Positions 1-60,446 of a stretch of 64,000 nucleotides of DNA are shown here, piece by piece. Where the stretch lies: IMG/VR virus record IMGVR_UViG_3300017989_004886. One strand, given 5' to 3'. The DNA is from a virus. The first letter of the stretch is position 1, and each line of letters begins with the position of its first letter. The notes beneath the pieces were generated by a model. That model was given only the letters and a program-made list of their open reading frames with translations. It had not been told where the DNA came from and did no database searches. The position numbers and the translations under genes are program-made.

Positions 1-561
1 CAAATCAGACAAATCACTTTTAAAAGAAATAACCGAATCAATGATTATCTCCATAAAACAAGTAGGTTTATCGTTAATTATTGTATAGACAATAATATCG
101 ATACAATCATAATTGGTCACAACAAACAATGGAAGACTGAGGTTAACTTAGGCCATATCAACAATCAAAACTTTGTTCAAATACCATTTACTAAGTTAAT
201 CAATATGCTGAAATACAAATCAGAAGAGGTCAATATTAGAGTAATCACAAATGAAGAGAGTTATACTAGCAAGTGTAGCTTTCTTGACAATGAAGAAGTT
301 TGTAAACATAAAACTTATCTAGGCAAAAGAATCACTAGAGGCCTCTTCAAATCATCCAAGGGTGTTAAGATTAACTCAGATGTTAATGGTAGTTTGAATA
401 TAGCTAAGAAAGTAGTCACCAAGACTGGTTCAGATTCTAAAGTAGTCATCAAAGATAGTGGCGTTAAGCCAAGATCGGAGGTGATAGAGGGTGCTGCGCT
501 TCACCCTATTAGGGTTTACCCTGATAAATCAAATTTAATAAAGTTACTGAATGCTATTTAG
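1..561 (+). CDS. tnpB: TnpB-family RNA-guided nuclease, 5'-partial (TnpB-A)
   Basis: Frame open from base 1 (QIRQITFKRNNRINDYLHKTSR..IIIGHN..NNQNFVQIPF); EESYTSKCS, KRITRGLF and NSDVNGSLNI motifs. Confidence 0.9.
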   Translation, partial: QIRQITFKRNNRINDYLHKTSRFIVNYCIDNNIDTIIIGHNKQWKTEVNLGHINNQNFVQIPFTKLINMLKYKSEEVNIRVITNEESYTSKCSFLDNEEVCKHKTYLGKRITRGLFKSSKGVKINSDVNGSLNIAKKVVTKTGSDSKVVIKDSGVKPRSEVIEGAALHPIRVYPDKSNLIKLLNAI

Positions 562-2633: not shown

Positions 2634-2701
2634 AATTATTTTACAAAGACACAACAAAAATCATGCGTTTTAGATAAGGATAATTCACAAAATGAGTGAG
2701 A

Positions 2702-31600: not shown

Positions 31601-31649
31601 GTGTTTCTCCTCACATAATTAAATCTCGTTTAAAAGTAAAATTAGTGAA

Positions 31650-33019
31650 TTATTGATTAAGCTTCTTTACAAGAAAACGTAAAGAAGCAATAACTGAAGA
31701 TAAACCCTTTCGTTTAAAAACAGAAAACTCAATTTTGTATTCATTTTGTAATAGATTAACTAATTCAGGTAAATTAACTCCATTCGTTACTACTTGTAAT
31801 GGGCATTCATCTGGATTAACCACAAAAGTTTCTGGTATCCGATTAATATCTTTAATGAGATATTCCACAGATTCAGGAGGATCTGGTATTAAAACAAATT
31901 TTCGTTGGTAAATAAAACCGGGCGTTTGAGGTTCGTCAGCTCCTGGATAATATAAACCTTTAGCTGGCATAAATGGCACTCCTTCGATATCAGTATGATC
32001 TCTTGTCCCATCCTCAAATTTACGTGGGTACTCCCCGCCTCCTTCTTCATGGTACTGGTGTAATGGTTTTTTAACTTTTCCCATTAATTAACCCAAAAAT
32101 AATGAAGATCCAAATCTTCATCATAGATTACTGAAAGATTTCTATAGTCAAACTCATCTCCGTGAACTTCAATTAATCTAGCAAACTCACTTACAGAACC
32201 AAAGAGTTCATTAACAAGTTCCTCATTTCTGCAATCACCAAGTAGTTTCACTAACTCAAAGGCCTAACAATTAAATTAGTTCCGCATTTTGGGCATTTTA
32301 GACTGCTTTGATTCTTTTCACGATCTCTTAAATTCACTGGGATTCGAATATCCTTTCTATTTTCTTGATAATGACAATTTGGGCATTCTACTACATACAT
32401 TTTAATCAGCCATGAATTTTATTAATTGTTTTGTAGTATGGACTATTAATATATCTACTTATTAAAGATTCCCAAGTAGAAAGAATAAATGTGAGTTCTA
32501 AACTATATCTTTTTGCATCAAAATTAATTTTAGTCAATAACTCATTTGCTCTTTCTTCAAATTGACCAGCATCTGTTCTTCTATTATGTTCCATTCTTTC
32601 AATATGAGGCCATGTAGTTAAAAGATCAAGATTGCGACCAAGTCCTGTATTATCTCTTACTGGAACATACTGACTAGAAGATGGATACCAACTGCGTATT
32701 GTAATAATCTTAAAAGGTTTATTTTCGCCCTCAGCCATTATTTGGATTCCTGCAAATAAGATCTTATTTCAAGAACTTTAGAATGAAATTCATCAGTTAC
32801 TTTTTGTTGATCTTCAGATTCTAAATTACAAAAGCTACCGAGCAATAAACGTTCTTCTTCTTCAAGAATTAGAGCAACATTATTTAAATCGCAAAAGCTA
32901 AAAATAAGGTTCCAAAGTTCGTCGGCTGGTAAATAAAGAGCTTCTTCCACTGAAATACCAACAGCATTCAAAAATCCTTTTTGATAGCCCTTTACTTTTT
33001 GCATGGTAACCCCGAACAA
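31650..33019 (-). other. Five small hypothetical ORFs, including an unlisted 49-aa zinc ribbon at 32251-32400
   Basis: ORF track plus manual translation MYVVECPNC..LKCPKCG. Confidence 0.55.
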
Positions 33020-33061
33020 TACAATAGAAAGGAAAATTAGTGGATTATAGATTAGAGGTGT

Positions 33062-33967: not shown

Positions 33968-34047
33968 CCGTGAATCCCTTAACAGAGTTAAAAATCATTT
34001 TTTAAGAAGTATTAGTGAATTATGAAATGACAAAAATTAAGAAGGAG

Positions 34048-34098
34048 GTGAGATCACATTAGCTAAAGCACATGGCTTTCTTTGTTTTGATCATGTAA
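34048..34098 (-). repeat. Copy of IS200/IS605-like right end (48/51 identical to 49160-49210)
   Basis: GATCAAAACAAAGAAAGCCATGTGCTTTAGCTAATG..ATCTCAC at both loci. Confidence 0.85.
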
Positions 34099-34128
34099 AC
34101 TGCGGATTTAATGAATCATTTTAAAATT

Positions 34129-34674
34129 TCATGAATTCATTGATTTTGGAAATTCAATGAATTCACTAGGCACATGGTCAACTAACCAAACATCATTTTC
34201 TGTATGGTGAAACTTGACTCCTGTTTCAGCTAATTCTTTAGCCTTGATTTTTAAGATTATAGGTTTTCCTTATCTAACTCCTACTATATTTGCTGTCTTG
34301 ACATCAGGTGATAGATGTACATGATGCCGATTCATTTTCAATAACCCTTGAAATTTAATGTGAGACAAAAATCTTTCAATTGTGCCATGGTAGAGAAATT
34401 CTGGCGGGTCTGTTGACTCATAGTCTAAATTAACACTAACTGAATGCCCTTGACGTGCTCTTATTTTTGTTCTATCGACGTTAAATTCAAATCTAGCTTT
34501 ATTGTTTTGTTCTACAATTGTATTGAGTATCACAAGGTCTAAACCGGCTTTGTTAAGAAGATCTTGAACATCTACCCAGCCATTCTCATCAAGAGTGATT
34601 CCGATCTTATCTGGCCGGTGTCTTAGGACCAGAGACAAAAATTTAGATTTGCGTGTTAGTTCTCTATGTTCCAT
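34129..34674 (-). pseudogene. kptA: RNA 2'-phosphotransferase (KptA/Tpt1) with in-frame TAA at 34270-34272
   Basis: SKFLSLVLRH, IRARQGHS, LYHGT, RHHVHLS; continues in frame after the stop as GKPIILKI..NDVWLVDHVP. Confidence 0.85.
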
Positions 34675-37600
34675 TAAATTCTCTAACAGTTAAACATCCA
34701 GGAAGAATCTCATTATTCTCGTCTCTCTGAAGGTCACTCGATAATTGGCGGGTCCGGATTATTATCTTTCGATCTGCAAAAAGATCTTTATTTAAGGCTT
34801 TTTGAAGCATTTGAGCACGAACTGCAGGGATGTTTTGGTCAAGGTCAATATCTTTGATTTCAACTGAGATACCTAAGTTCTTTAAATAGCTCTCAATAAG
34901 CAAACATGTAGTCGTCTTCCCAACACCGGGTTGGGATGAAATATCGATGTAGATTTCATTCAGCATGAGATGATTCTTTCAAAGATTCTCGAGGTATATT
35001 GTGAACTCGTTTGCTCCAATCTTTTGGCTCTAAATGTTCTTGCCATCTACCTGGCATAGACATGTTGCATCTCTCGCATTGACGAACGCACCATTTGTTA
35101 GGAAACTCAGCAGATGATTGTGGCTTTCTCTCGCCGCCTTCTGAGGTGCCTGGATCATCAGGAGCAATAGGCACTTCATCATCTGCATACCAAACAACAT
35201 CATCTTCATTATCTGATAATTGCTCATGAGGTCTATCACTAATCCCCCATGCCTTGTAACAGTTACCATCACAAACTACTTTAGCTTTTTGACCACAATA
35301 CCAAATGATATCTTCAGGCATTAGAGCCTTCCTCAAGCATATAATCTGCTTCATATGGATTTGAGTCATTATGGCACATCCATTTAGCAATTTTTTTCTC
35401 TTTAACTAACTGTTCCAAAGCATTCCAGAAATAAGGATGGGTGTTAGGAATCTTGATCGCGTCAGCAAGAGTACAATGATTAACCCACTCATCATGCGCT
35501 GAGTCACCTTTTATGCACTCTTCTTTTTTCTTTCGAAGATATCTTAAAATCTCTCTTTTAACCTCATCTATTTGCATCTCAGTTTGTCTCTTTACGAATG
35601 CTGCTTCAGACTTGAGCGAAGGTCCTCCTGGGGTTCCACCCAAAGAGTCCATTGCTTCTATAATGCCGAGTGGGTCATATGGATCATAACTCATTTGCTG
35701 TATTCTCGATCTAAAGTACAAAGTGCCTTAGAAATTTTATGTGAGGGCCTACGCTTCTTTTCTTTACCTCTCCCTCCTACGTCACTTAAAGGGCATTCAT
35801 CACAATACATAATGTGGTCTTCGTCATGATTATGAATACACTTTCTAGCAATCTTGTCTCTTGCCCATTTAAGAGCAGATTCAAGAACTTTGATCTCTCT
35901 TCTAAGAGCTTCGTAGTCTTTCTTTGTTCTTAAATTGTTAAACTCTTCTTTTGTAAGGATATAGTACATTATGACTCCTTAGAAAGATCTTGAATCTTTT
36001 GCTCGATCTCTTCTAATGTTTCTTCAACAAATTTACGAACTTCAGCGAGTGAAAGATTTTTGATCTGTTGTAGGATATCTCGTTGTGCGAGGAAATGAAC
36101 TAAAGCAGCATCTTTTTCTTTTGATTCCATCATTCACCTCATCGGTGATAAAAACATCCGGGCTTATGATTTGGATCTCTTTTCAAGTTCTTTATTGAGA
36201 TAATTCAAGATATAATTCTCTTTGTTTCTCTTTGCTTCGGCAATCCAATTGCGTAACGCTGAAAGAGGGACATAAGAAGTTGCTTCACAAAACACACCAT
36301 TAAAAGGACAACGTTCACTCACTACCCAATCTTTCTCGAAATGTCTATTTAACTCCTCTTCAAGCTCATAATTGCGTAATTTTGGCCATTCATATTCATG
36401 AAAATAGCGAACAAAGTTAGCATCGAGTTTCTCTCTCTGCTTTTCCCATAGATCTGACAATTTGCTTATTGCTGCTGACCGAGAAATAAGGTTAGGATTA
36501 TCCATTAACTTTTTGTGCTACCTCAATGCATTTTTCACAAGTTACTTCTTCTCTTTTAGCAGACCAACGAACAAATTTTGGGTCCTCACCACAAAGGGTT
36601 AAATCTGGAACACTAATAAGGCCTTTCCAATGGACCTCACCATCTAAATGGGAGTTTTCAATCCAGGAACCTTGGGGATTTACAGGTTGCCCAAAAATAA
36701 AGCTATTTTTATTCATCATTCACCTGTTTAGCAAACTTACCTAGAGATCTTGAAAGGGCATATCGAGCGTCATTAAGAGCATCCTCTACCCGCCACACTT
36801 CTTTTAAGTCCATAACTCTTCTATAATCTGCCAGCCATTTTTCACAAGACTCGACTAAAGTACGCAAATGATCAGCATACAGACATCTTACCATGAGGCT
36901 TTCTTTACCTTTATTGGCAAGATACTGTGGCCACCATTTTGGTTTACTCATTATCTTATTCTACTCATTCTTATCAGACCAATTTTTGTCGTATGTGACA
37001 GTTCCTCCTGGACCTTCTTTTCGAATGTCAGGGTCCTCTTCCCCTTTCAAATCTCTCTTAGAACCTGGGCATCCTTCATCATTTTGAGGGCAAAGCCCAA
37101 TACACATGAAAAGAAAAGTACCAAAAAAAGAACCAATCCACTCAAAAAGATCTTCCATAGTCATCTCCTTTAATCTGGGGAGTCCTCATCTTTAAAACTA
37201 TATTTAGATTCTTCTGGATCTTTCCAGAATTCAAAGGCTTTACCTTCCATCATACACGCACGATACTCTCGTTCTTCTTCAATTTCTTCCCTTGCTTCCT
37301 TGCTTCCATAACAAACGCCATCCCAAACCTGCTTAAAATGCTCTAATTGGAAAATGTACTCCTCATCTAGAATCTTATCACAGATATGACAAATGAAACG
37401 ACCATTTTTAGGAGTTGGAAGCCAAAAATGTTCTTTCTTTGCTAAATATTTAGAACGTTCTCTATTAAAGGCTTCTTGGTGTTCTTTTTTAACACCTAAA
37501 ATTCGAGTGCGGTATTGCTTATATGTTTCTCTTATTTTGATTTTTAGTTCTGTTTTATTTGGGCCTGTAGCCATTTTAACGAATTGTTCTCTTTGTATTT

Positions 37601-39193: not shown

Positions 39194-40336
39194 CTACCAT
39201 CCTTTAATTATACAAATGGGAGATGATTTATTTTCAGTAGTCCCATCACCCAATTGTCCATGATCATTATTACCCCAAGTCCAAACATTTCCATTAGATT
39301 CCAAAGCCATTGTATGCGAAGAACCTACCATAATACATACAATATTCTGAAGCCCAGGTACTTGTATTGGAAAATAGCTGTCACTATTAGTCCCATCACC
39401 CAATTGTCCATGAGAATTAACTCCCCAAGCCCAAACTGTCCCATCATTTTTCAAAGCTACGGTATAATAACTACCGCATTTGATATCAACAATTTCATCT
39501 AGAGTAATTATTTCTTTTGGAACTAAGCGATCAACAATCGTATTATCGCCAATCTGCCCATAATAATTATAACCCCAAGCCCAAACAGAACCATCTGATT
39601 TTAGAGCTGCTGAATGCCAACGACCTGCACTAACAGCAAAAACATCTGTTAAAATTTGAGTACTGACAGGGATTTGTCTAAAAGTACATGTATTATCTCC
39701 TAATTGCCCCTTCCAATTATTACCCCAAGCCCAAACAGTACCATCATTCTTTATAGCGAGAGAATGAGCATTGCCGGCAGCAATTGCTGTCACATTACAT
39801 ATATCAGAACACCTTGGAGCTATGCGATCTGTCTGACTATCATCACCCAACTGCCCAGCATCATTAGATCCCCAACCCCAAACTGTGCCATTCGATTTTA
39901 AAGCTAGTGAATGGCGACCTCCAGCAGCAATAGAAACCACATCAAAAATACTACTAACCAGCATAGGAATAGAACTATCTTCTGTGGTGCTAACCCCTAG
40001 CTGGCCTTTACTATTGGCTCCACAAGCAAAGACGGCACCCCTAAAATCCAAAATAAGCGTATGAGAATAACCTCCCGCAATCATCGAAATACCCTGAAAA
40101 TTCAAAGAAACAGGAGTATATAAGTCAATACAAGTCCCAATACCAAGTTGTCCTTTATCATTACAACCTACACAATCAGCAGAATAATTAGGATAACCTA
40201 AAAAAGTAAAGGAATCTCCAGCAGCCAAAGTTGAAACTTTTGTTTGAGGTCCCCAAACAAAACTAGTATCTTGCTCATACTCACTGCATGAGATGATAAA
40301 GAGAGCAAGCGTTAAAAGAGAAGTTTTGATTCCCAT
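39194..40336 (-). CDS. RCC1-repeat beta-propeller lipoprotein
   Basis: Repeated AG..HS.AL..DGTVWAWG.N..GQLGD; lipobox-like LFIISC. Confidence 0.9.
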   Translation of the reverse strand: MGIKTSLLTLALFIISCSEYEQDTSFVWGPQTKVSTLAAGDSFTFLGYPNYSADCVGCNDKGQLGIGTCIDLYTPVSLNFQGISMIAGGYSHTLILDFRGAVFACGANSKGQLGVSTTEDSSIPMLVSSIFDVVSIAAGGRHSLALKSNGTVWGWGSNDAGQLGDDSQTDRIAPRCSDICNVTAIAAGNAHSLAIKNDGTVWAWGNNWKGQLGDNTCTFRQIPVSTQILTDVFAVSAGRWHSAALKSDGSVWAWGYNYYGQIGDNTIVDRLVPKEIITLDEIVDIKCGSYYTVALKNDGTVWAWGVNSHGQLGDGTNSDSYFPIQVPGLQNIVCIMVGSSHTMALESNGNVWTWGNNDHGQLGDGTTENKSSPICIIKGW

Positions 40337-43790: not shown

Positions 43791-45088
43791 CTTTTCATAA
43801 CCTCGCAATGCTTTACCAACTAAACTACAAAGTTACGAAATCATTAGTAAAATATTATCGCTAAACTGCCGACCCAGAACATCTTCTTCTGATGCCTTGA
43901 ATAATTTGTTTAATTCTTCAAAATTGTCTGGAATCTCAAGATTCATCTGAAAACTTCCTGTCTTCTGAAAATTTGGTTGAGGAAATTAAATCTTTTTGAA
44001 TGCATACTTGATGCTGCACCCCACGGTCTGTATGGACAAGATCAAGGAGGTCTTCCTGATCTAAAACAACGGTACCTTCAAAAACACGATCATCTTTTAG
44101 AGAAACACGAACATATTTTCCTACTGAAGAAGGTTCTCGCACATCTTTAATAAAATGGTTTCCAGATTCCCAAGGTTTATAAAATGCACATTCAGTAATA
44201 GACCGATGCCCATCCTCCCATGCCTCTTTTCGTTCAAAATCTACCCACAATGGAGTATAATTCTCATATCTGTATTCACCATTTGGATGTGGAGGACGAA
44301 GGTTACAACGTCCTGAATACTGCATTGTTGGCCCAGTAAGAACCTTACAAGGTTCAAGTTTTGGTAGGTGCATACAAGTTAAACATAAAGATCTCGCTCC
44401 TGAATCTTCTGTTTTTGGTTCAGACACTTCTCTGTCACTTTCAACTCTAAAGGTTGATTCTGGTAATTCTACAAGTTCACCAGCATCTTCCGGAACTCGA
44501 CCTGCATGTCTTTCGCATAGAAAAGTATAAGTGCTAGCACTAATTAAACAATGTGTAGCCGAATTCTGGCATGGAAAACCTTTTTCTAAAAAATACTGCT
44601 TTTCTTTATCGATAATTTGATAATCCCGTTCATCGCACATACATTCGTGCTTTTCTGGTGGCCAACCTGGTTTAGGCCAATGGATTTTAACCATGTGCTG
44701 TTTCCCCTATACTTTCACTAAATCTTTAGCTTTGACACGAATCTCTGGGCAAGCCGGATATTCAACAAAAGTCACTTCAGCAGTCTTAAAATGACGAATG
44801 CAAACTTCACCTAACTTGCCCTTATGTTTTCCTTTGGTGATACGAACCTTATCACCGATCTGGAAGTCTTTTGCTTTCATTTTGATATCTCTCATATTCA
44901 AATTCTTCTTTACATCCCTGACACTTTGGGCCAACTATCTGTGCGATACAAGACACAGGATTTCCACAAACTTTACATTTCTTATCTTCTACATCAGCAT
45001 CAGCCCAAACCTCTTGGCAAATGCTACAAGACCATAACTCTTTAAGAAATTCATCAAATTTCAAAATTAAGTCCTTATAAGTATTTAG

Positions 45089-45394
45089 TGCGCGAGGCGG
45101 GAATCGAACCCGCACGGGCGATTAAGCCCAGCGGATTTTCTTACCACTACAGCTTTCGCTGCCAGTTTAAAAACTGTTTGTGGTCTGGACTTTCTCTTCA
45201 CCATAGTCATCTGACCTTAGGTGCGCCCCGTAAAGTCTCTACACTCACCAAATATTCTTTGGTTAGCTCGGGATTACCATCAGCATTACCTGTTAAGGCT
45301 TCCCCGAATTAGGGGCGTCCACTTCACATGTTTCCATATGAAGGCTCAAATTAGAGCACCAAGTCCGCTGTGTCTTCCTTTCCACCACTCGCGC
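45089..45394 (-). tRNA. trnL: tRNA-Leu(UAA), intron-containing (exons 45361-45394 and 45089-45139)
   Basis: Spliced arm GCGGA-CT T^AA AA-TCCGC; GCGCGAG/CTCGCGC acceptor; GCGGG-TTCGATT-CCCGC. Confidence 0.93.
45140..45360 (-). ncRNA. Group I intron (IC3-like), 221 nt, no ORF
   Basis: U before 5' splice site, terminal G; P AATTCGGGGAA, Q AATCCCGAGC, R GTAGAGACT, S AAGAGAAAGTCC. Confidence 0.9.
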
Positions 45395-46478: not shown

Positions 46479-47378
46479 TTACAAAAGATTATGGTGTTTC
46501 CGAACTATCTGATTAATGTCTCGTAATGCCTGCACTGCAGCATCTGGATTCACTACTTCCTCACTTAAATTTCCATAATGCTCCTCGAGACAATGCAAGA
46601 GTAAATTCTTAATTTTTTGTTCGTTCGGTGAATAGGGAATCTTACTTTCTTCATATAATCTTTCTAAAGCATGTTCTTTTTCAGCTGCCCATTTTTCTAC
46701 GTCATCCTGAGATATTTCACCTCGTCGAATGGCCTTGAGGTGCTCTCGATGCCGCATAAGATCCATATTCCCCTCACTCAAGATTTGTTCAACCTCAAGA
46801 AGCAAGCGAACGACATGATGACCGAACTTCACATCCCATCCATATTTTTCGCGAATCTTCTCACGCTTGCTGCCTTTCTCAGGATTCTTGCCCCTTGCTT
46901 TATGAAGTTGGGAGTAGGCGTAGCCTTTAAAGCGATGCCAACACCCTTTATGTAGAAAATCTTTTCTAGCGTCTCTCACCATATTACCTACTCTAGTGAT
47001 TTTCAGGATGCAAGCATCTGGGGCAAACAGCGAATCAAGCATATTTGGATTATTTTGCATGCATAGTTGAAAATACTTAACGATATTATAGATTGTCAAA
47101 TCATAAATCTTTCCGGCTTCGGAATCTTCGATATGATGTTTCTGGTATTGTTCAAATCTTTTCTTCTGGAGTCCAAATCCGATGATCTCCCCACGCAAGT
47201 GCGGAAAAATAACATCCTTAGATGGAATACAAAAGCCACTCACATCCATATCTGAAAGATCATCTGAAACCCCATACATAACACTTCCAACCACAACTTC
47301 ATATTGAGTCGCAGATTCAACTGCTTTCGGAACTTGTGCGAGCCCACGTGAAGTTACTCGCTGTACAATACTAGACAT
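46479..47378 (-). CDS. Predicted nucleotidyltransferase (Pol-beta superfamily, YcgL/RlaP-like)
   Basis: VGS..YG.....SD.D..G, NPN.LD.LF, FKGYAYSQ, H..RLL. Confidence 0.85.
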   Translation of the reverse strand: MSSIVQRVTSRGLAQVPKAVESATQYEVVVGSVMYGVSDDLSDMDVSGFCIPSKDVIFPHLRGEIIGFGLQKKRFEQYQKHHIEDSEAGKIYDLTIYNIVKYFQLCMQNNPNMLDSLFAPDACILKITRVGNMVRDARKDFLHKGCWHRFKGYAYSQLHKARGKNPEKGSKREKIREKYGWDVKFGHHVVRLLLEVEQILSEGNMDLMRHREHLKAIRRGEISQDDVEKWAAEKEHALERLYEESKIPYSPNEQKIKNLLLHCLEEHYGNLSEEVVNPDAAVQALRDINQIVRKHHNLL

Positions 47379-48884
47379 TTCGATCCTTCCTTGAACAACC
47401 CCCAAATTTTTCAAATGGACAATTTTTAATTTTGTCTCCAAGTTTCACTGGATTCATATGAAGAGGCAAAGAGTGCTCGGTGTCAATAAAAGTGATCTTT
47501 CCCTTAAAATGTCGAAGGAAATCTAAAGACAGATTTGTTTTTGGGGTGACTCCCGAGTAGAACTGTTTAAATAGATCCAGATTGATCATCTTCTTTGACA
47601 TCTGTCTCCTCCACTCCTGGACAAAAAAGATTTGCCCAACAATCCTTGCAAATGTTTTTGCCTTGTCTAGCCAAAAACAATTTTTCTATTAAACGTCTGT
47701 GTTGATCTTTTTTATACTGTTTTTCCTTGATCTCGCAACAAATAAAATCAGGACAGTCTTGTCCATCTTCTGGATCTCGTCTACCATGTAGATCACATTG
47801 ACCAACATTTAAATAGCAACCGCAGTCTCCAGGCTTAAAATCATAGTAATAGCAAAAATCGCAACAATGGTTTAAAACACATTCAGCACTACAAAAACGA
47901 GAAGTATCAAAGCCCTCCTGCTCAATCTGGTCTATTTCTTCATAATAGTCTTTAGGTTCTTGGTCTTTCATGAAGTGTTCTCTTTCTTAGGATTAACCTG
48001 CCAACTGTTCGTACCATATTCTACTGCCCAATCAATTGCCCCATAGACCATTTCATGATCGACTGTTGGGTCTTCTTTCTCAACAATCTCAAAACTTGCC
48101 TCAGCTAAGGTCTCTTCTGAAAAATCGTCTAGATCATCCAGTTTGTTCCACCTCAAAAAATCTCTATAAGCAATATCGTTTGCGCCCTGCCATTTAAATT
48201 CAGATTCCCACTTTTCTAATAATTCTACTGCTCTTCTTTCAATCTCTTGAGGAGATTCTTTGAGATCATCAACCCAAACTGAATAAGGTGAAATCTCAAA
48301 TCTCTCACCACTATGAATCATGAATCTTCTCATCATGAGCCTCTTAAATTAACTCCCAAACCTTAGTGCCTTCCTTAATTTTAAAATCAAAAGTATAAGG
48401 GTTTTCTTTTAAAACTTTAGTTACTCTAGTTCTTTGTTCATCTAAATCATAGACAATTTCTTGCGTTTTCATAGGCCCATTTTGAAGTAATAAAACCCGA
48501 ATTTGATCAAATAGTTCTTCGTTTTTCACAATGCTCTAACCTTAAACGTATCTCGTTTCTCATGAAGATGAAACAAAGGATCTTCTGGAAGATGAAAATT
48601 GAATTTTAATCATTGATTCCCTCGAAGTATTGCTTGCAAGATTCATTCAATTCATCAGTTTGCTTAGCAGCATTCAACAAACTGTAGGCCAACTTACGAG
48701 CCTCTAAGGCCGTCAAATCAATCTGGGCCTTTTTCACATGCCCATGAATTGAAATTCCAGGTCTGACCCCCTCGAGCAAAAAGACCACTCTATCATTTAC
48801 GCACAAAAGCACATCTGGACCGTCACCCCAAGTACAAGATGCGCTTAACTCATTTCCCATAACTATTATCTCTCAAAATCATAA

Positions 48885-48958: not shown

Positions 48959-49397
48959 TATTGACCAAATGTATCTTTAAATGCTTCGTGAAGTACATTA
49001 AATTCTATTACAGTGAGTCTATTTTTAAGACGATTTAAAATCTTCTTTTTAATGTGATACTCTTTCATTTCTTTTTGATAAATTTCTAGCACTTGAGTGC
49101 GATACCAAGCAACAAACAACTTTTTCAGCCAACAACCTGTGCCAGAACAACTCCTACAAGTGAGATACCATTAGCTAAAGCACATGGCTTTCTTTGTTTT
49201 GATCTTGTAATTTGATTCATAAAAGCATGTTCCCCAAGCCCAGGTTGAAAAGATAGAGAGGTAATCTTACCATATCCGTCACAGTGAACACAAGGGTATT
49301 TACCATCTTTTGGAAGTCTTCCAAGACTTCTAAAAACACGAGCCTCTTCTAAATTTTTGTAGGTTTTCTGTGGTTTTTTAATTTTTAAAGCTTTCAT
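48958..49397 (-). pseudogene. DnaJ-type zinc-finger protein gene interrupted by a 101-bp element
   Basis: Removing 49160-49260 restores a 112-aa ORF with CVHCDGYG-KIT-CRSCSGTG. Confidence 0.8.
49160..49260 (-). mobile_element. Non-autonomous IS200/IS605-like mini-element
   Basis: Inserted 3' of TTAC, no clear target duplication, subterminal GC-TTTA-GC hairpin, ends TCAC. Confidence 0.75.
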
Positions 49398-50083: not shown

Positions 50084-51169
50084 AATCAAAAGGCAGGAAG
50101 ATGCAAGCTAAGCTATGAGCCCTAAGGCTCATAGTCCCGGTTATATCTCCCGGACACCCTCCTGTCTTTAAAATTGCACTCATTTTGTTTAGGTCCGAAG
50201 ACTGCTTTAAAATCTTCCCCAATAGATTTCCAATCTGAAGCAAGGGCTTCTTGATTTGTTCTATTTAAAATGCTATGGACATTTGGGTTGTGAAGGCCAC
50301 CCGAAAGATCAAAAAGCGAACCTATACCTTTAAAGAAATCTCTTATTTTCTGCATTATTTAAATCTCTTAAATTCTAACATTTATTTTACAAAGATTTAA
50401 CGTTTTAGCCAATGGAGATGTTCAGAAATCTCGTTTGCTTTAACAATCTTATGTGAACTCATCTCTTCGTATATGTGAGATCCCCAAACTCTAATAACTT
50501 CAACTATACCATCTAGATTAAGCCAAATAGAAAGTTTCTTCTTGTTGAGCCAAACTTCTAAAATTGTTTCTTTTTCCTCAGTGGTAGAGATGAAGAATTC
50601 TAAGTTCTCATCTTTTAAAATTTTCTGTATAATTTCTAACATTGTGAATCTCTGGTATTAGCCAAAATGTTAATGGTCAAATCATCGGATAAGTTGTATG
50701 TCCAGAATGAATAATTTGAAGACGCAAAGTGATAGAATGCACAGAGCCAAAAGGAAGTACAATAACAACCCCATTGTCTCCTTCGCGATAACAATCAAAT
50801 TTAATTTCTTCATCTATTCGAGCAAAATAACTTGCTAAAAAATTCTTAAGTTCTAAAATGAAAGATATATAGAAGGTTGGCTTCATTAGAAGACCTTCAT
50901 AGCGATTAAAAAACTCATTAAGATCTTTCTTGAATTTTTCTAAGCCTGCACTTAGAAAAATTTCATAACGAGCTTCAGGTGTTAAAGGATTTGGATTTTT
51001 AAGTGTGTTCACTGTCCAAATACCTTAAAAAAGCAGTTGCGATTTCTTTCTTTATCAAAAGGTGTGCTTCATGGTCGTTGAAATCACCAATACGATGTTT
51101 GGTTGCTTCTTATATGATTTCTTGGACTTCTTTTTTGATTTGTTCACGGTTCATGAATGCCCTCCTAAT

Positions 51170-51256
51170 TGGTGGAGGCGGCGGGAATCGAACTCCCAAG
51201 GGCTATTAACCCCGGCTGTTTTCAAGACAGCTGCCTTACCGTTAGACTACACCTCC
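51170..51256 (-). tRNA. tRNA-Ser(UGA), CCA encoded, imperfect T stem
   Basis: GCTGT-CTTGAAA-ACAGC; long variable arm. Confidence 0.85.
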
Positions 51257-54122: not shown

Positions 54123-54377
54123 TTAGGGACCCTTAAAATTACTCATTTAAAATAAGTATTAATGAATTATTAAAATAAAATCATGACTACACAGTTTCTT
54201 CTGGACCTATTTCTCTTTGCTCTTGAAAACCGCAATCAAAACATTGAATACCTAAAATCAAACAACCAAAGGATCTTTTGTTATCCTTGGTTTCTTTATA
54301 CTCTCGAAAACGTATTGTGCTAACAAGTTTTGAATTGCATTTTGAACACTTAAACCCTTCTTTCTGTTTGGGCATCT

Positions 54378-54964: not shown

Positions 54965-55102
54965 ACGCCTCGTCACCTAGGCAACTTCAAGAGAAGTTTG
55001 CTTTTGTTTGTTAGCAACATAAGCTACTAACTCACTCATCTTAACCCCACTTCTTTCAAAGTCAGGTAGCCTTATTCTCTTTGGGTTAGACGTAAACCCA
55101 CT
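54965..55102 (-). ncRNA. Putative omegaRNA scaffold of TnpB-B
   Basis: 138 nt colinear with 60321-60458; compensatory stem changes. Confidence 0.7.
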
Positions 55103-56353
55103 AGACAGTCGAGCAATGGCAAATTTGCCATTGCTTCCCTGCTTACTTTTGATTGCTATGTTAGCAGCCCCATTCACATCAGCATTGATTAGAGTGCCTT
55201 TAGAGGTCCCGAACAAACCTCTATGAATACGTTTACCTAGATAAGTAGTGTGTTTCTCTGGGTACTCTTCATCTAAGAAACTACACTTGGATGTGTAAGA
55301 CTCATCTTGAAAAATTAGTTCTAGACCATAGATTTGGCACTTGTGTTTAAGTTTTTGTTTGAAATTGGCGAATGGTATTTGTACAAAGTTTTGATTGTTG
55401 ATCTTACCTAGTTTGATACTTTGTTTGATCTCACTAGACCAGTCACCAATGATGATAGTGCCTATATCCTTTTGAGCACAATACTTGATAATATAGGAGA
55501 CCATTTGATTTAGATAGTTATTAATTTGATTCTTACGTTGTTGTGTTAGTCTGATTAGTCTTTTTGAACTCTTTTCTAGTTCAACTCCTTTCTTCTTTAA
55601 AGAGTTCTTGTGCTTGATGTAAACAGTCTTTAACTTTGCGGTTTGTTTGTTCCACCATCTGTTGATTGATTTGAGTTCTCGCCCATCCAGAATAAACGAA
55701 CGTCCAGATTGGCAATCCAAACAAGTGGCAAAGTTATCAAGACCACAATCTATACTTAAGAGATTTGATTTATCTAAGTTAAGATTAGTTTTTGATTCGT
55801 CATGTTCGTAAGTGATCGCTAGTTCAAAGTATTGAGCGTTGTTGTGTTGAATTATAGCTACTTGTTTGATTTTGCCTTTAAATTGTTTTTTAAATGAAAT
55901 CTTGATCTTGTAGTTAGTTTTTAGGTTATTTTCTCTACAGACTTGTTTTGATGGGTGAAAATAGAAATAAGTATCTGTAAAATTGAAACTCTTCGGTGAC
56001 AGATAGATATGATAATAACCATCTTTTGGAAGATAATGTGGCATTTTGACTTTACAGTGATAGTCACCTGATTTTTGTTTCTTCTTTAAAGCGAAGAATG
56101 ATCTAAAAGCCCAATCTATTCGAAGTTGGATGTGTGCTGCAACATCTGATTTCATCCTTTGTGTTTCTGGTAGTTGTTTTACTAAATTATGGCGAGCGTA
56201 CATACCTAAGAACTCACCATTATTAAAGAAATGTTGTCGCGTTATATAAAGAACTGAATTATAAAAATTTTTAGAATCTTTACACATTTGTTTAAGAAAT
56301 AGATAGTCCTGTTTTGATAATTTCCTAATCTGAATTTTTTGTGTAAGTATCAT
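54977..56353 (-). CDS. tnpB: TnpB-family RNA-guided nuclease (TnpB-B)
   Basis: SIDCG (RuvC-I), IIIGD, QDESYTSKCS, NADVNGAANI. Confidence 0.92.
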   Translation of the reverse strand: MILTQKIQIRKLSKQDYLFLKQMCKDSKNFYNSVLYITRQHFFNNGEFLGMYARHNLVKQLPETQRMKSDVAAHIQLRIDWAFRSFFALKKKQKSGDYHCKVKMPHYLPKDGYYHIYLSPKSFNFTDTYFYFHPSKQVCRENNLKTNYKIKISFKKQFKGKIKQVAIIQHNNAQYFELAITYEHDESKTNLNLDKSNLLSIDCGLDNFATCLDCQSGRSFILDGRELKSINRWWNKQTAKLKTVYIKHKNSLKKKGVELEKSSKRLIRLTQQRKNQINNYLNQMVSYIIKYCAQKDIGTIIIGDWSSEIKQSIKLGKINNQNFVQIPFANFKQKLKHKCQIYGLELIFQDESYTSKCSFLDEEYPEKHTTYLGKRIHRGLFGTSKGTLINADVNGAANIAIKSKQGSNGKFAIARLSSGFTSNPKRIRLPDFERSGVKMSELVAYVANKQKQTSLEVA

Positions 56354-59033: not shown

Positions 59034-60446
59034 ATGTATCTTGCACTTAAATCACAGATCAGAAAACTTAGTAAACAAGACTACCTCATCATCAAACAAA
59101 TGTGTAGAGATTCAAAAGATCTCTACAACAAATCTTTATACGAAGTCAGACAACACTTCTTTAAAACAAGTGGTCATCTCACCTACTTCTCAAGATACAA
59201 ACAGATGAAAAATCTTTCGTCTGTTAAGAGAATGAAGTCAGACTTTAGCATGCATGTACAACAAAGAGTTGATTTTGCCTTCAAATCATTCCTTGCTCTT
59301 GATAAAATGGCAAGAAATGGTGAGTATGATAAGGAAAAAGTAAATATACCACACTATCTACCCAAAGATGGTTATTATAACTTGTTTATGTCTCCGAAAA
59401 GTATTGGTTTTGATAGTGAGTATTTCTATTTTCACCCTACAAGTTATATCTGTAAAGATCTTCTATTGTCTCAGAAATACAAGATCAAAATACCTTTCAC
59501 CAAAAAAATAGAAGGTATAATCAAAGAAGTTCAGATCATACCTAAAAATAATGCTCGTTACTTCGAACTCTTAATCACCTATGAATATGATGAATCTAAA
59601 ACTAATCTTAAACTAAATAAAGATAATCTTCTAAGTATCGATCTTGGGCTAGATAACCTTGCCACTTGTCTTGATCTACAGTCTGGGCGATCATTTATTC
59701 TGGATGGTCGAAAACTCAAATCACTTAACAGATGGTGGAACAAAGAGGTGGCAAGGTTAAGAGGCATCTATGAAAAACAAAAGAATAGTCAAAAGAAGAA
59801 AGGAGAGAAAGTTCAGAAAAGTTCTAAACAACTTGATCGGTTGAGTAAGTGGAGAAAGGGCCAGATAGGTAATGCTCTCAACCAAATGGTGGCTCATGTT
59901 ATCAAGTACTGTGCAAGTCATAACATAGGTACTATTGTCATAGGTGACTGGAAAGGCATTAAAGATGGTATTCAGATGAGACATGAAACTAAACAAAACT
60001 TTGTCCAGTTACCCTACAACTTGTTCAAACAGAAACTCTACTCCAAATGTCAAATGTTTGGACTTGGCTGTGAGTTTCAAGAAGAGAGTTATACTTCTAA
60101 GTGTAGCTTTCTTGAGCAAGAAAAGATCTGTAAACACAAGAAATATATGGGCAAGAGAATTTATAGAGGCTTGTTCAGAACCTCTAAAGGCATTCACATC
60201 AACTCAGATGTGAATGGTGCAGGTAACATAGGTGTCAAGTTCTTGTTAAATCAAAAACAAAGTCAAGATCTAAAACAACGTATGCGAGGAGATCGGGTCA
60301 TTGATCCGATTGAACTGAGTAGTGGGCTTGCGCTTAGCCCAAAGAGAATAAGGCTACCTGACTTTGAAAAGAGCCAGGTTAAGATGAGTGAGTTAGTGGC
60401 TTTGGTTGCTAATGAACAAAAGCAAACTTCTCTTGAAGTTACTTAG
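59034..60446 (+). CDS. tnpB: TnpB-family RNA-guided nuclease (TnpB-C), paralog of TnpB-B
   Basis: SIDLG, IVIGD, QEESYTSKCS, NSDVNGAGNI; start at MYLAL aligns with TnpB-B. Confidence 0.92.
   Translation: MYLALKSQIRKLSKQDYLIIKQMCRDSKDLYNKSLYEVRQHFFKTSGHLTYFSRYKQMKNLSSVKRMKSDFSMHVQQRVDFAFKSFLALDKMARNGEYDKEKVNIPHYLPKDGYYNLFMSPKSIGFDSEYFYFHPTSYICKDLLLSQKYKIKIPFTKKIEGIIKEVQIIPKNNARYFELLITYEYDESKTNLKLNKDNLLSIDLGLDNLATCLDLQSGRSFILDGRKLKSLNRWWNKEVARLRGIYEKQKNSQKKKGEKVQKSSKQLDRLSKWRKGQIGNALNQMVAHVIKYCASHNIGTIVIGDWKGIKDGIQMRHETKQNFVQLPYNLFKQKLYSKCQMFGLGCEFQEESYTSKCSFLEQEKICKHKKYMGKRIYRGLFRTSKGIHINSDVNGAGNIGVKFLLNQKQSQDLKQRMRGDRVIDPIELSSGLALSPKRIRLPDFEKSQVKMSELVALVANEQKQTSLEVT

Follow-up and report, generated by a model that had tools for sequence, protein, structure and literature searches.

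One of the closest described systems to the element reported here is IS608, an insertion sequence of the IS200/IS605 family. It inserts 3' of the tetranucleotide TTAC with no gain or loss of DNA; its left cleavage site (CL) lies 19 nt 5' of the hairpin foot, its left guide (GL), AAAG, lies just 5' of that foot, and its right cleavage site (CR) lies 10 nt 3' of the right hairpin foot (PMC3201880). A second group of relatives are the PATEs, which are related to IS605-type elements, are non-coding, lack inverted terminal repeats, carry a near-terminal palindrome and cause no target duplication (PMC3119063). In Haloquadratum walsbyi, core deletion around the near-terminal palindrome has given rise to terminal-only PATEs of 52 bp (for example that of ISHwa23 or HqIRS46), and strain-specific insertions hint that this tiny form may move (PMC3119063).

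Here we describe an element of comparable size in a phage genome. The window, by which we mean the whole stretch of 64,000 nucleotides that was analysed, is part of a large tailed phage, with a baseplate wedge protein, an HNH endonuclease, eight tRNA genes and nearly all of its genes on one strand. One of these genes is interrupted by a 47-nt insert, which is very probably a terminal-only, single-hairpin derivative of an IS608-like (IS200/IS605 family) insertion sequence. The locus is a single 130-aa DnaJ-type zinc-finger gene split by this insert, and not two small ORFs. The 5' part of the gene (49207..49397, minus strand, ATG start at 49395-49397) encodes the first motif, CVHCDGYG (CxxCxGxG), and the 3' part (48961..49159, minus strand) encodes the second motif, CRSCSGTG, followed by a helical tail and the stop codon TAG at 48961-48963. 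The two parts are out of frame with each other. The element sits within the codon ACT and shifts the frame by +2, and as encoded the 5' part stays open in frame through the insert until a stop at 49125. The second Cys motif and the helical tail lie in a different frame, from 49158 down to 48961-48963, and stay untranslated from the normal start. The encoded product is cut to 89 aa, and the interrupted gene is now probably non-functional. A tRNA-Arg(UCU) gene lies directly 3' of it, and the window also encodes a tRNA-Thr(UGU). The interrupted sequence, insert included, is present in an independent 194-kb ENA assembly contig, and the interrupted allele was found in four runs from three sediment or seawater studies; it is therefore no assembly artefact.

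Two further observations concern the same phage. A 57-nt stretch at 45082-45138 is 75% identical to the 3' half of the tRNA-Ser(UGA) gene (51166-51222). It is called as a tRNA by neither ARAGORN nor Rfam, and may represent a degenerate tRNA or a fragment of one. On the minus strand, 39245-39923 holds five tandem repeats of ~150 nt within a 380-aa ORF (39194-40336), which resemble a beta-propeller or RCC1-type repeat protein.

The size of the insert deserves a closer account. The original prediction placed it at 49160-49260 (101 nt), and what it read from the sequence is reproduced: TTAC precedes this stretch, TCAC stands at its end, and deleting it joins ..AAG ATT AC to T TGT AGG.., which gives CxxCxGxG-KIT-CxxCxGxG in an open 112-codon frame. 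A second ATTAC lies at 49207-49211, 54 nt past the left junction chosen in that prediction and in the same frame, and deleting only 49160-49206 (47 nt) likewise restores the frame, now to a protein of 130 aa. Four lines of evidence favour the shorter extent. An exhaustive HMMER search with the 3' part as query found two 131-aa homologues, P0004 and P0005, the only ones found, which match both halves of the gene and have ~22 residues between their two Cys motifs. The product of the 47-nt deletion is colinear with them from end to end with a single one-residue gap, whereas the product of the 101-nt deletion needs a gap of 19 columns. The extra residues at the junction, which had been named as the observation that would count against the 101-nt version, are thus present, and the 54 nt at 49207-49260 that were counted as insert encode the linker between the two motifs. 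The second copy in the window shares only TTAC and exactly the 47-nt unit, and every member of the family measures 46-48 nt. Finally, run X1 contains a relative of ~90% identity, whose 169-nt contig passes from 49159 to 49209 with two intervening letters; it is therefore exactly 47 nt shorter. Five of the seven substitutions listed for this relative are synonymous in the restored frame, and so are both of those inside the 54-nt linker (49239 and 49248). The insert is 47 nt long (49160-49206, minus strand), not 101. Its boundaries can slide by 2 nt because AC is present both in the left flank and at the end of the element. The interruption of the gene and the right boundary at 49160 thus stand, and only the left boundary was misplaced.

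The shorter allele of the relative is an empty site. It lacks exactly the insert, but it is ~10% diverged and its site reads TTGT, not TTAC; it therefore never had the target, and the allele is no excision product. Among the Logan contigs, where rare alleles or circle junctions are invisible, no empty allele of the same strain was found. Other searches for relatives of the gene gave little: a word-based homologue search with the 3' part returned only the window's own fragment, exact look-ups of the 3' fragment and of the 89-aa product returned no match, a scan of viral_contigs with the 3' part returned none, and blastn against GenBank phages matched only the tRNA-Arg gene.

The insert in the zinc-finger gene (copy A, 49160..49206, minus strand, 77.6 bits against a covariance model built from the mini copies of the family) has a simple anatomy. 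Directly 5' of it stands the TTAC target with the left cleavage site (49207..49210, minus strand), made up of the gene's own codons ATT AC- and placed as the IS608 rule has it (PMC3201880). The guide tetranucleotide AAAG (49188..49191, minus strand) adjoins the hairpin foot on its 5' side, at a distance of 19 nt from the cut after TTAC, and is the same as GL of IS608. It is followed by a 20-nt imperfect palindrome, CCAT-GT-GC-TTTA-GC-TA-ATGG (49168..49187, minus strand), whose GC-TTTA-GC apex is also found in the ends of full-length relatives, and then by an 8-nt right tail of TATC and TCAC with the right cleavage site (49160..49167, minus strand). A hairpin before TCAC had been predicted; the relevant one is this palindrome rather than the 5-bp AAAGC/GCTTT stem alone. 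Folded as RNA or as DNA, the insert region does no better than shuffled sequences (RNA z -0.74), and Rfam matches only tRNA families in the window.

Copy B consists of TTAC and a 47-nt element (34048..34098, minus strand, the element itself at 34048-34094); it scores 71.2 bits, and 3 of its 47 positions are not the same as in copy A. Both copies are found by the covariance model at E-values below 1e-14, and the window contains two occurrences of a 24-mer of the element against an expectation of none. Copy C (2641..2688, plus strand) is a probable decayed member, with TTAC, 44 nt and a terminal TCAC; it scores 26.8 bits (E 1.9e-4 for the window), and its hairpin and guide are degraded. A further match to the model at 35890-35940 was rejected as chance, as it lies inside an intact ORF and has no hairpin. 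Copy C is intergenic and in the opposite orientation. Copy B is likewise intergenic, between a kptA-like gene and the next promoter-like motif. The kptA-like gene encodes a Tpt1/KptA RNA 2'-phosphotransferase (34127-34674, minus strand). A nearly full-length match to PF01885 (E 1.7e-46) is obtained only if translation continues through an in-frame TAA at about 34270-34272 (..VGVR*GKP..); the gene could be a pseudogene or a case of read-through or recoding. Another RNA-repair gene, encoding RlaP, lies at 46482-47441.

Beyond the window, six further genuine copies (L005, L006, which shares a contig with L036, L007, L008, L012 and L013) came up, along with chance matches, when metagenomes were scanned with a 20-mer from the element. 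The L012 copy is the left end of a full-length element rather than a mini-element. The seven mini-elements, copies A and B included, share one plan: a T(T/C)AC flank, an A-rich spacer of 18-20 nt ending in AAAG, a 20-nt imperfect palindrome, and 4 nt followed by TCAC. The left flank is TTAC in seven of eight copies and TCAC in the remaining one (L006), and every copy terminates in TCAC, with a tail of 8 nt. The mini-elements form two subfamilies that differ in the spacer and are identical at the junction between left and right parts, and most of the copies are intergenic or lie at gene ends. In L007 (1150-1300), a mini-element is flanked by the N-terminal (..GIVLAGGLGTRLHPLT..) and C-terminal parts of what resembles an RfbA-like sugar-nucleotidyltransferase gene. 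The middle of that gene is absent, perhaps through a deletion linked to the element. In the metagenome contigs the summed contig depth is 90-176 over the element against 13-17 in the flanks, that is, 6-10 times the flank depth. Contigs also break inside the element, and their loose ends expose further flanks, for example ..TTAC. These communities therefore contain the element in multiple copies. Scans of IMG/VR gave no match with a 23-mer of the element, and 24 of the 25 matches to an 18-mer were unrelated coding sequence. An exact search for the 20-mer in 185,579 reference prokaryote genomes found no genuine copy; both genome_contigs matches were due to chance, so they give no clue to the host.

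The full-length element in L012 links the family to a transposase. Its left end, which follows TTAC, is identical over 37 nt to copy L005, which belongs to one of the mini subfamilies, and scores 47 bits against the mini-element covariance model. Past the shared part, L012 diverges into an internal motif, GATGAATTG, then a promoter-like motif and then tnpA. The tnpA gene encodes 137 aa; its protein cluster, P0006, carries PF01797 (Y1_Tnp) as a precomputed Pfam annotation, and the protein is 36% identical to a Pfam-confirmed Y1_Tnp transposase encoded in a related phage genome (G001). An ORF in the tnpB position overlaps tnpA and begins before the end of the contig, which is reached before the right end of the element. 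The complete right end of an L012-type element is predicted to be a hairpin followed by TAGCTCAC. Four full-length relatives (L045, L046, L047 and L052) have TnpA proteins 47-72% identical to that of L012. Their left ends consist of TTAC, a spacer ending in AAAG, a hairpin and the same internal motif, and their right ends of a hairpin with the GC-TTTA-GC apex and a short tail ending in TCAC or TCAG. The tail TAGTTCAC is identical in the mini copy L008 and in the right end of L046. These relatives have two hairpins, left and right, which differ in sequence; the mini-element has one 20-nt palindrome, at IS608-like distances from both of its ends. To judge from these sequences, the mini-element is the left end of such an element through its subterminal hairpin, fused to the last 8 nt of a right end.

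The ends also follow a guide rule. The four bases just 5' of each hairpin and the corresponding cut site vary together (AAAG-TTAC, GAAG-TCAC, GAAC-TCAG and CGGG-CGAC), and the guide/cut-site pairs of IS608 obey the same covariation. The one guide of the mini-element, AAAG, fits TTAC and has one mismatch to the right site TCAC, where the right ends of full-length elements pair GAAG with TCAC. Copy L006 nonetheless inserted after TCAC.

The proposal of a non-autonomous IS200/IS605-type element is thus borne out by the target, guide and end that it has in common with the L012 tnpA-tnpB element, and insertion 3' of TTAC without duplication and with a TCAC end agrees with the exactly 47 nt by which the relative's allele is shorter. 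The search for a cognate TnpA and TnpB succeeded in so far as the L012 element shares its left end; within the 64-kb window itself, tblastn found no Y1 TnpA, and no close TnpA in the TnpA homologue list lies on a contig of 172 or 194 kb. For a non-autonomous element, a TnpA encoded in its own genome is no requirement.

Several elements and motifs near the family have to be kept apart from it. An IS605-type element in G001 (L042, at G001:C1:56130-59495; IMG/VR 3300017987_004587) was considered as the parent and rejected for its different hairpin. The phage that carries it is related and also has one mini-element. The L042 element is complete, with divergent tnpA (133 aa) and tnpB (375 aa) genes and two near-identical hairpins of 8-9 bp, each followed by 14 nt ending in CTCAC, the left one overlapping the stop codon of tnpA. 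In the IMG/VR contig of L045 (2800-2900), the full-length IS608-like element follows a TTAC that directly adjoins a tRNA-gene-like sequence on the other strand. A promoter-like motif, ATAATYYACTAAT (gene strand), recurs upstream of many genes in the window, including both full tnpB genes; examples are found at 31629-31653, 33024-33048, 33999-34023 and 54146-54170, and also in L006 and L012. Its presence downstream of some mini-elements and upstream of tnpB had made it a candidate for an IS end, which we rejected, as it is the phage's general promoter-like motif. In the L012 left end it stands upstream of tnpA, which suggests that the IS relies on the same type of promoter as the phage.

By the mechanism that we propose, a Y1 (HUH) TnpA supplied in trans would bind the hairpin on single-stranded DNA, cut 3' of TTAC and 3' of TCAC, and release a small ssDNA circle, which would be pasted 3' of another TTAC without duplication. 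TnpA would then move the 47-nt form as such, and the element could excise and restore the gene. A reversible switch is possible in principle by analogy with IS608, whose excision is seamless (PMC3201880). On the sequence comparisons we lean towards the 47-nt form itself being mobile, and we consider the chances evenly balanced that the one-hairpin element is an active TnpA substrate spreading among phages. The alternative is that each site first received a full-length IS608-like element, which later lost its core between the hairpins; the 47-nt form would then never have moved by itself. Such a history has a precedent in the repeat-mediated core deletions that turned 1.5-kb IS605-type elements into 52-bp remnants (PMC3119063), and phage genome size limits would favour the loss of a core. 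Self-mobility is also questionable because the mini-element has a single hairpin and a mismatch between guide and TCAC. Against this stand the numbers, with eight mini-elements for one full-length left end with the same 20-mer, and the 6-10 times higher depth over the element. In addition, the junction is identical in all copies, including two subfamilies with different spacers, yet in full-length relatives the two hairpins are too dissimilar to offer a long repeat for repeated recombination at the same point. We therefore regard independent core loss at every site as unlikely, though it deserves to be taken seriously.

A quite different explanation leaves the insert in the message. In gene 60 of phage T4, ribosomes skip a coding gap of 50 nt, helped by identical take-off and landing codons, a stop codon right after take-off and a take-off stem-loop. 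By analogy, ribosomes at our locus would leave the message at ACA and resume at ACU after a gap of 47 nt, and the full 130-aa protein would still be made. The gap is close in length to that of gene 60, there are Thr codons at both junctions (ACA and ACT), the window encodes a tRNA-Thr(UGU), and the four runs of three studies show the gene in its interrupted form. However, take-off and landing would involve two different codons. Take-off would be followed by AGA instead of a stop, and the phage has a tRNA-Arg(UCU) right after the gene; the take-off site, too, has no stem-loop, the hairpin beginning only 19 nt later. The surrounding RNA, moreover, folds no better than shuffles (z -0.74), and the other copies are intergenic or at gene ends, with nothing that points to selection for read-through. 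Bypassing is thus very improbable here. If it did take place, phages would have a second natural example of bypassing, one that arose from an IS200/IS605 end and is helped by tRNA-Thr(UGU).

The original prediction went on to read the 101 nt as mostly omega-RNA scaffold, possibly acting as a guide in trans to a TnpB. The window does contain three TnpB genes, and the removal of 101 nt also restores the frame with a tidy pair of Cys motifs. Two of the genes are full (54977-56353, minus strand, and 59035-60446, plus strand), with OrfB_IS605 and TNB domains, and neither is accompanied by tnpA. Lying in inverted orientation, the two are 75-86% alike; one of them sits between the tRNA-Glu and tRNA-Gln genes. 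The third is a C-terminal fragment at the left edge of the window (1-561, plus strand). The guide idea fails on comparison with them, since the element has no similarity to the 3' tails of any of the three, and at most ~28 nt of it, the hairpin and the 8-nt tail, derive from a right end. An omega RNA has a scaffold of at least 100 nt from the tnpB 3' tail, which the element lacks, and Rfam finds nothing at the element. The linker in the homologues, the synonymous linker substitutions in the relative, a family of 46-48 nt throughout and an allele that is shorter by 47 nt and not 101 all stand against this reading as well, and we consider it extremely improbable. Practically negligible is the idea of a mini-intron, in which the 47 nt are removed from RNA, for example by an endonuclease and a ligase: the window has RNA-repair genes (Tpt1/KptA and RlaP), and copy B adjoins kptA, but the only Rfam families there are those of tRNAs, the insert is far too short for a group I or II intron, and a DNA-level family with TTAC targeting and a tnpA link fully explains it.

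The identification of the 47-nt element as an IS608-like derivative has several implications. The gene model at this locus is corrected to one split gene of 130 aa. Large environmental phages carry one-hairpin derivatives of 46-48 nt that IS608-like transposons leave behind and may also spread; these are among the shortest transposon-derived repeats described. If a Y1 transposase cuts and pastes the single-hairpin unit, this would be a natural minimal substrate, useful for the study of guide-based cleavage-site choice and for engineering ssDNA transposition. The covariation of guide and cut site furthermore provides a simple rule for predicting the targets of this IS clade.

Compared with known systems, the mini family has in common with IS608 (ISHp608) of Helicobacter pylori the TTAC target, the AAAG guide, a distance of 18-20 nt between cut and hairpin foot, a right cleavage a few nt 3' of a hairpin and DNA-neutral insertion; the comparison with the IS608 ends is one of architecture. 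The right site is TCAA at 10 nt in IS608 and TCAC in an 8-nt tail here. IS608 as characterised has a hairpin at each end, bound by a TnpA dimer, and the mini-element has one. Unlike IS608 it also has no transposase, while the parent in L012 has tnpA and then an overlapping tnpB, as IS608 does. The features of terminal-only PATEs are all found in the mini-element, namely a palindrome, no inverted terminal repeats, no duplication, no coding capacity and IS605-type ends, and both consist of such ends fused around a single palindrome in about 50 bp. The PATEs differ in that they are 52 bp long and reside in a haloarchaeal chromosome, whereas the mini-elements are 46-48 nt long and are found in tailed-phage genomes from sediment and seawater metagenomes. 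The mini-elements also differ from PATEs in having a TTAC-targeting tnpA-tnpB IS608-like element as their parent, and in that one of them lies inside a coding gene. REPs and REPINs are very short hairpins related to the ends of IS200/IS605 elements; they occur in many copies and probably depend on a Y1 RAYT (TnpA-REP) in trans; REPs are extragenic, spread over the whole chromosome and linked to a domesticated single-copy RAYT. The mini family is set apart from them by a defined TTAC target and by its identity to the left end of a bona fide IS. Finally, the locus resembles T4 gene 60 in having a non-coding insert of ~50 nt in a phage ORF, the skipping of which restores a protein, and related flanking codons; the insert here, unlike that of gene 60, belongs to a transposon family whose copies are mostly intergenic. 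The mini-element is thus a tiny non-autonomous element of an already described kind, now found in phage genomes, with no sign of a new mechanism.
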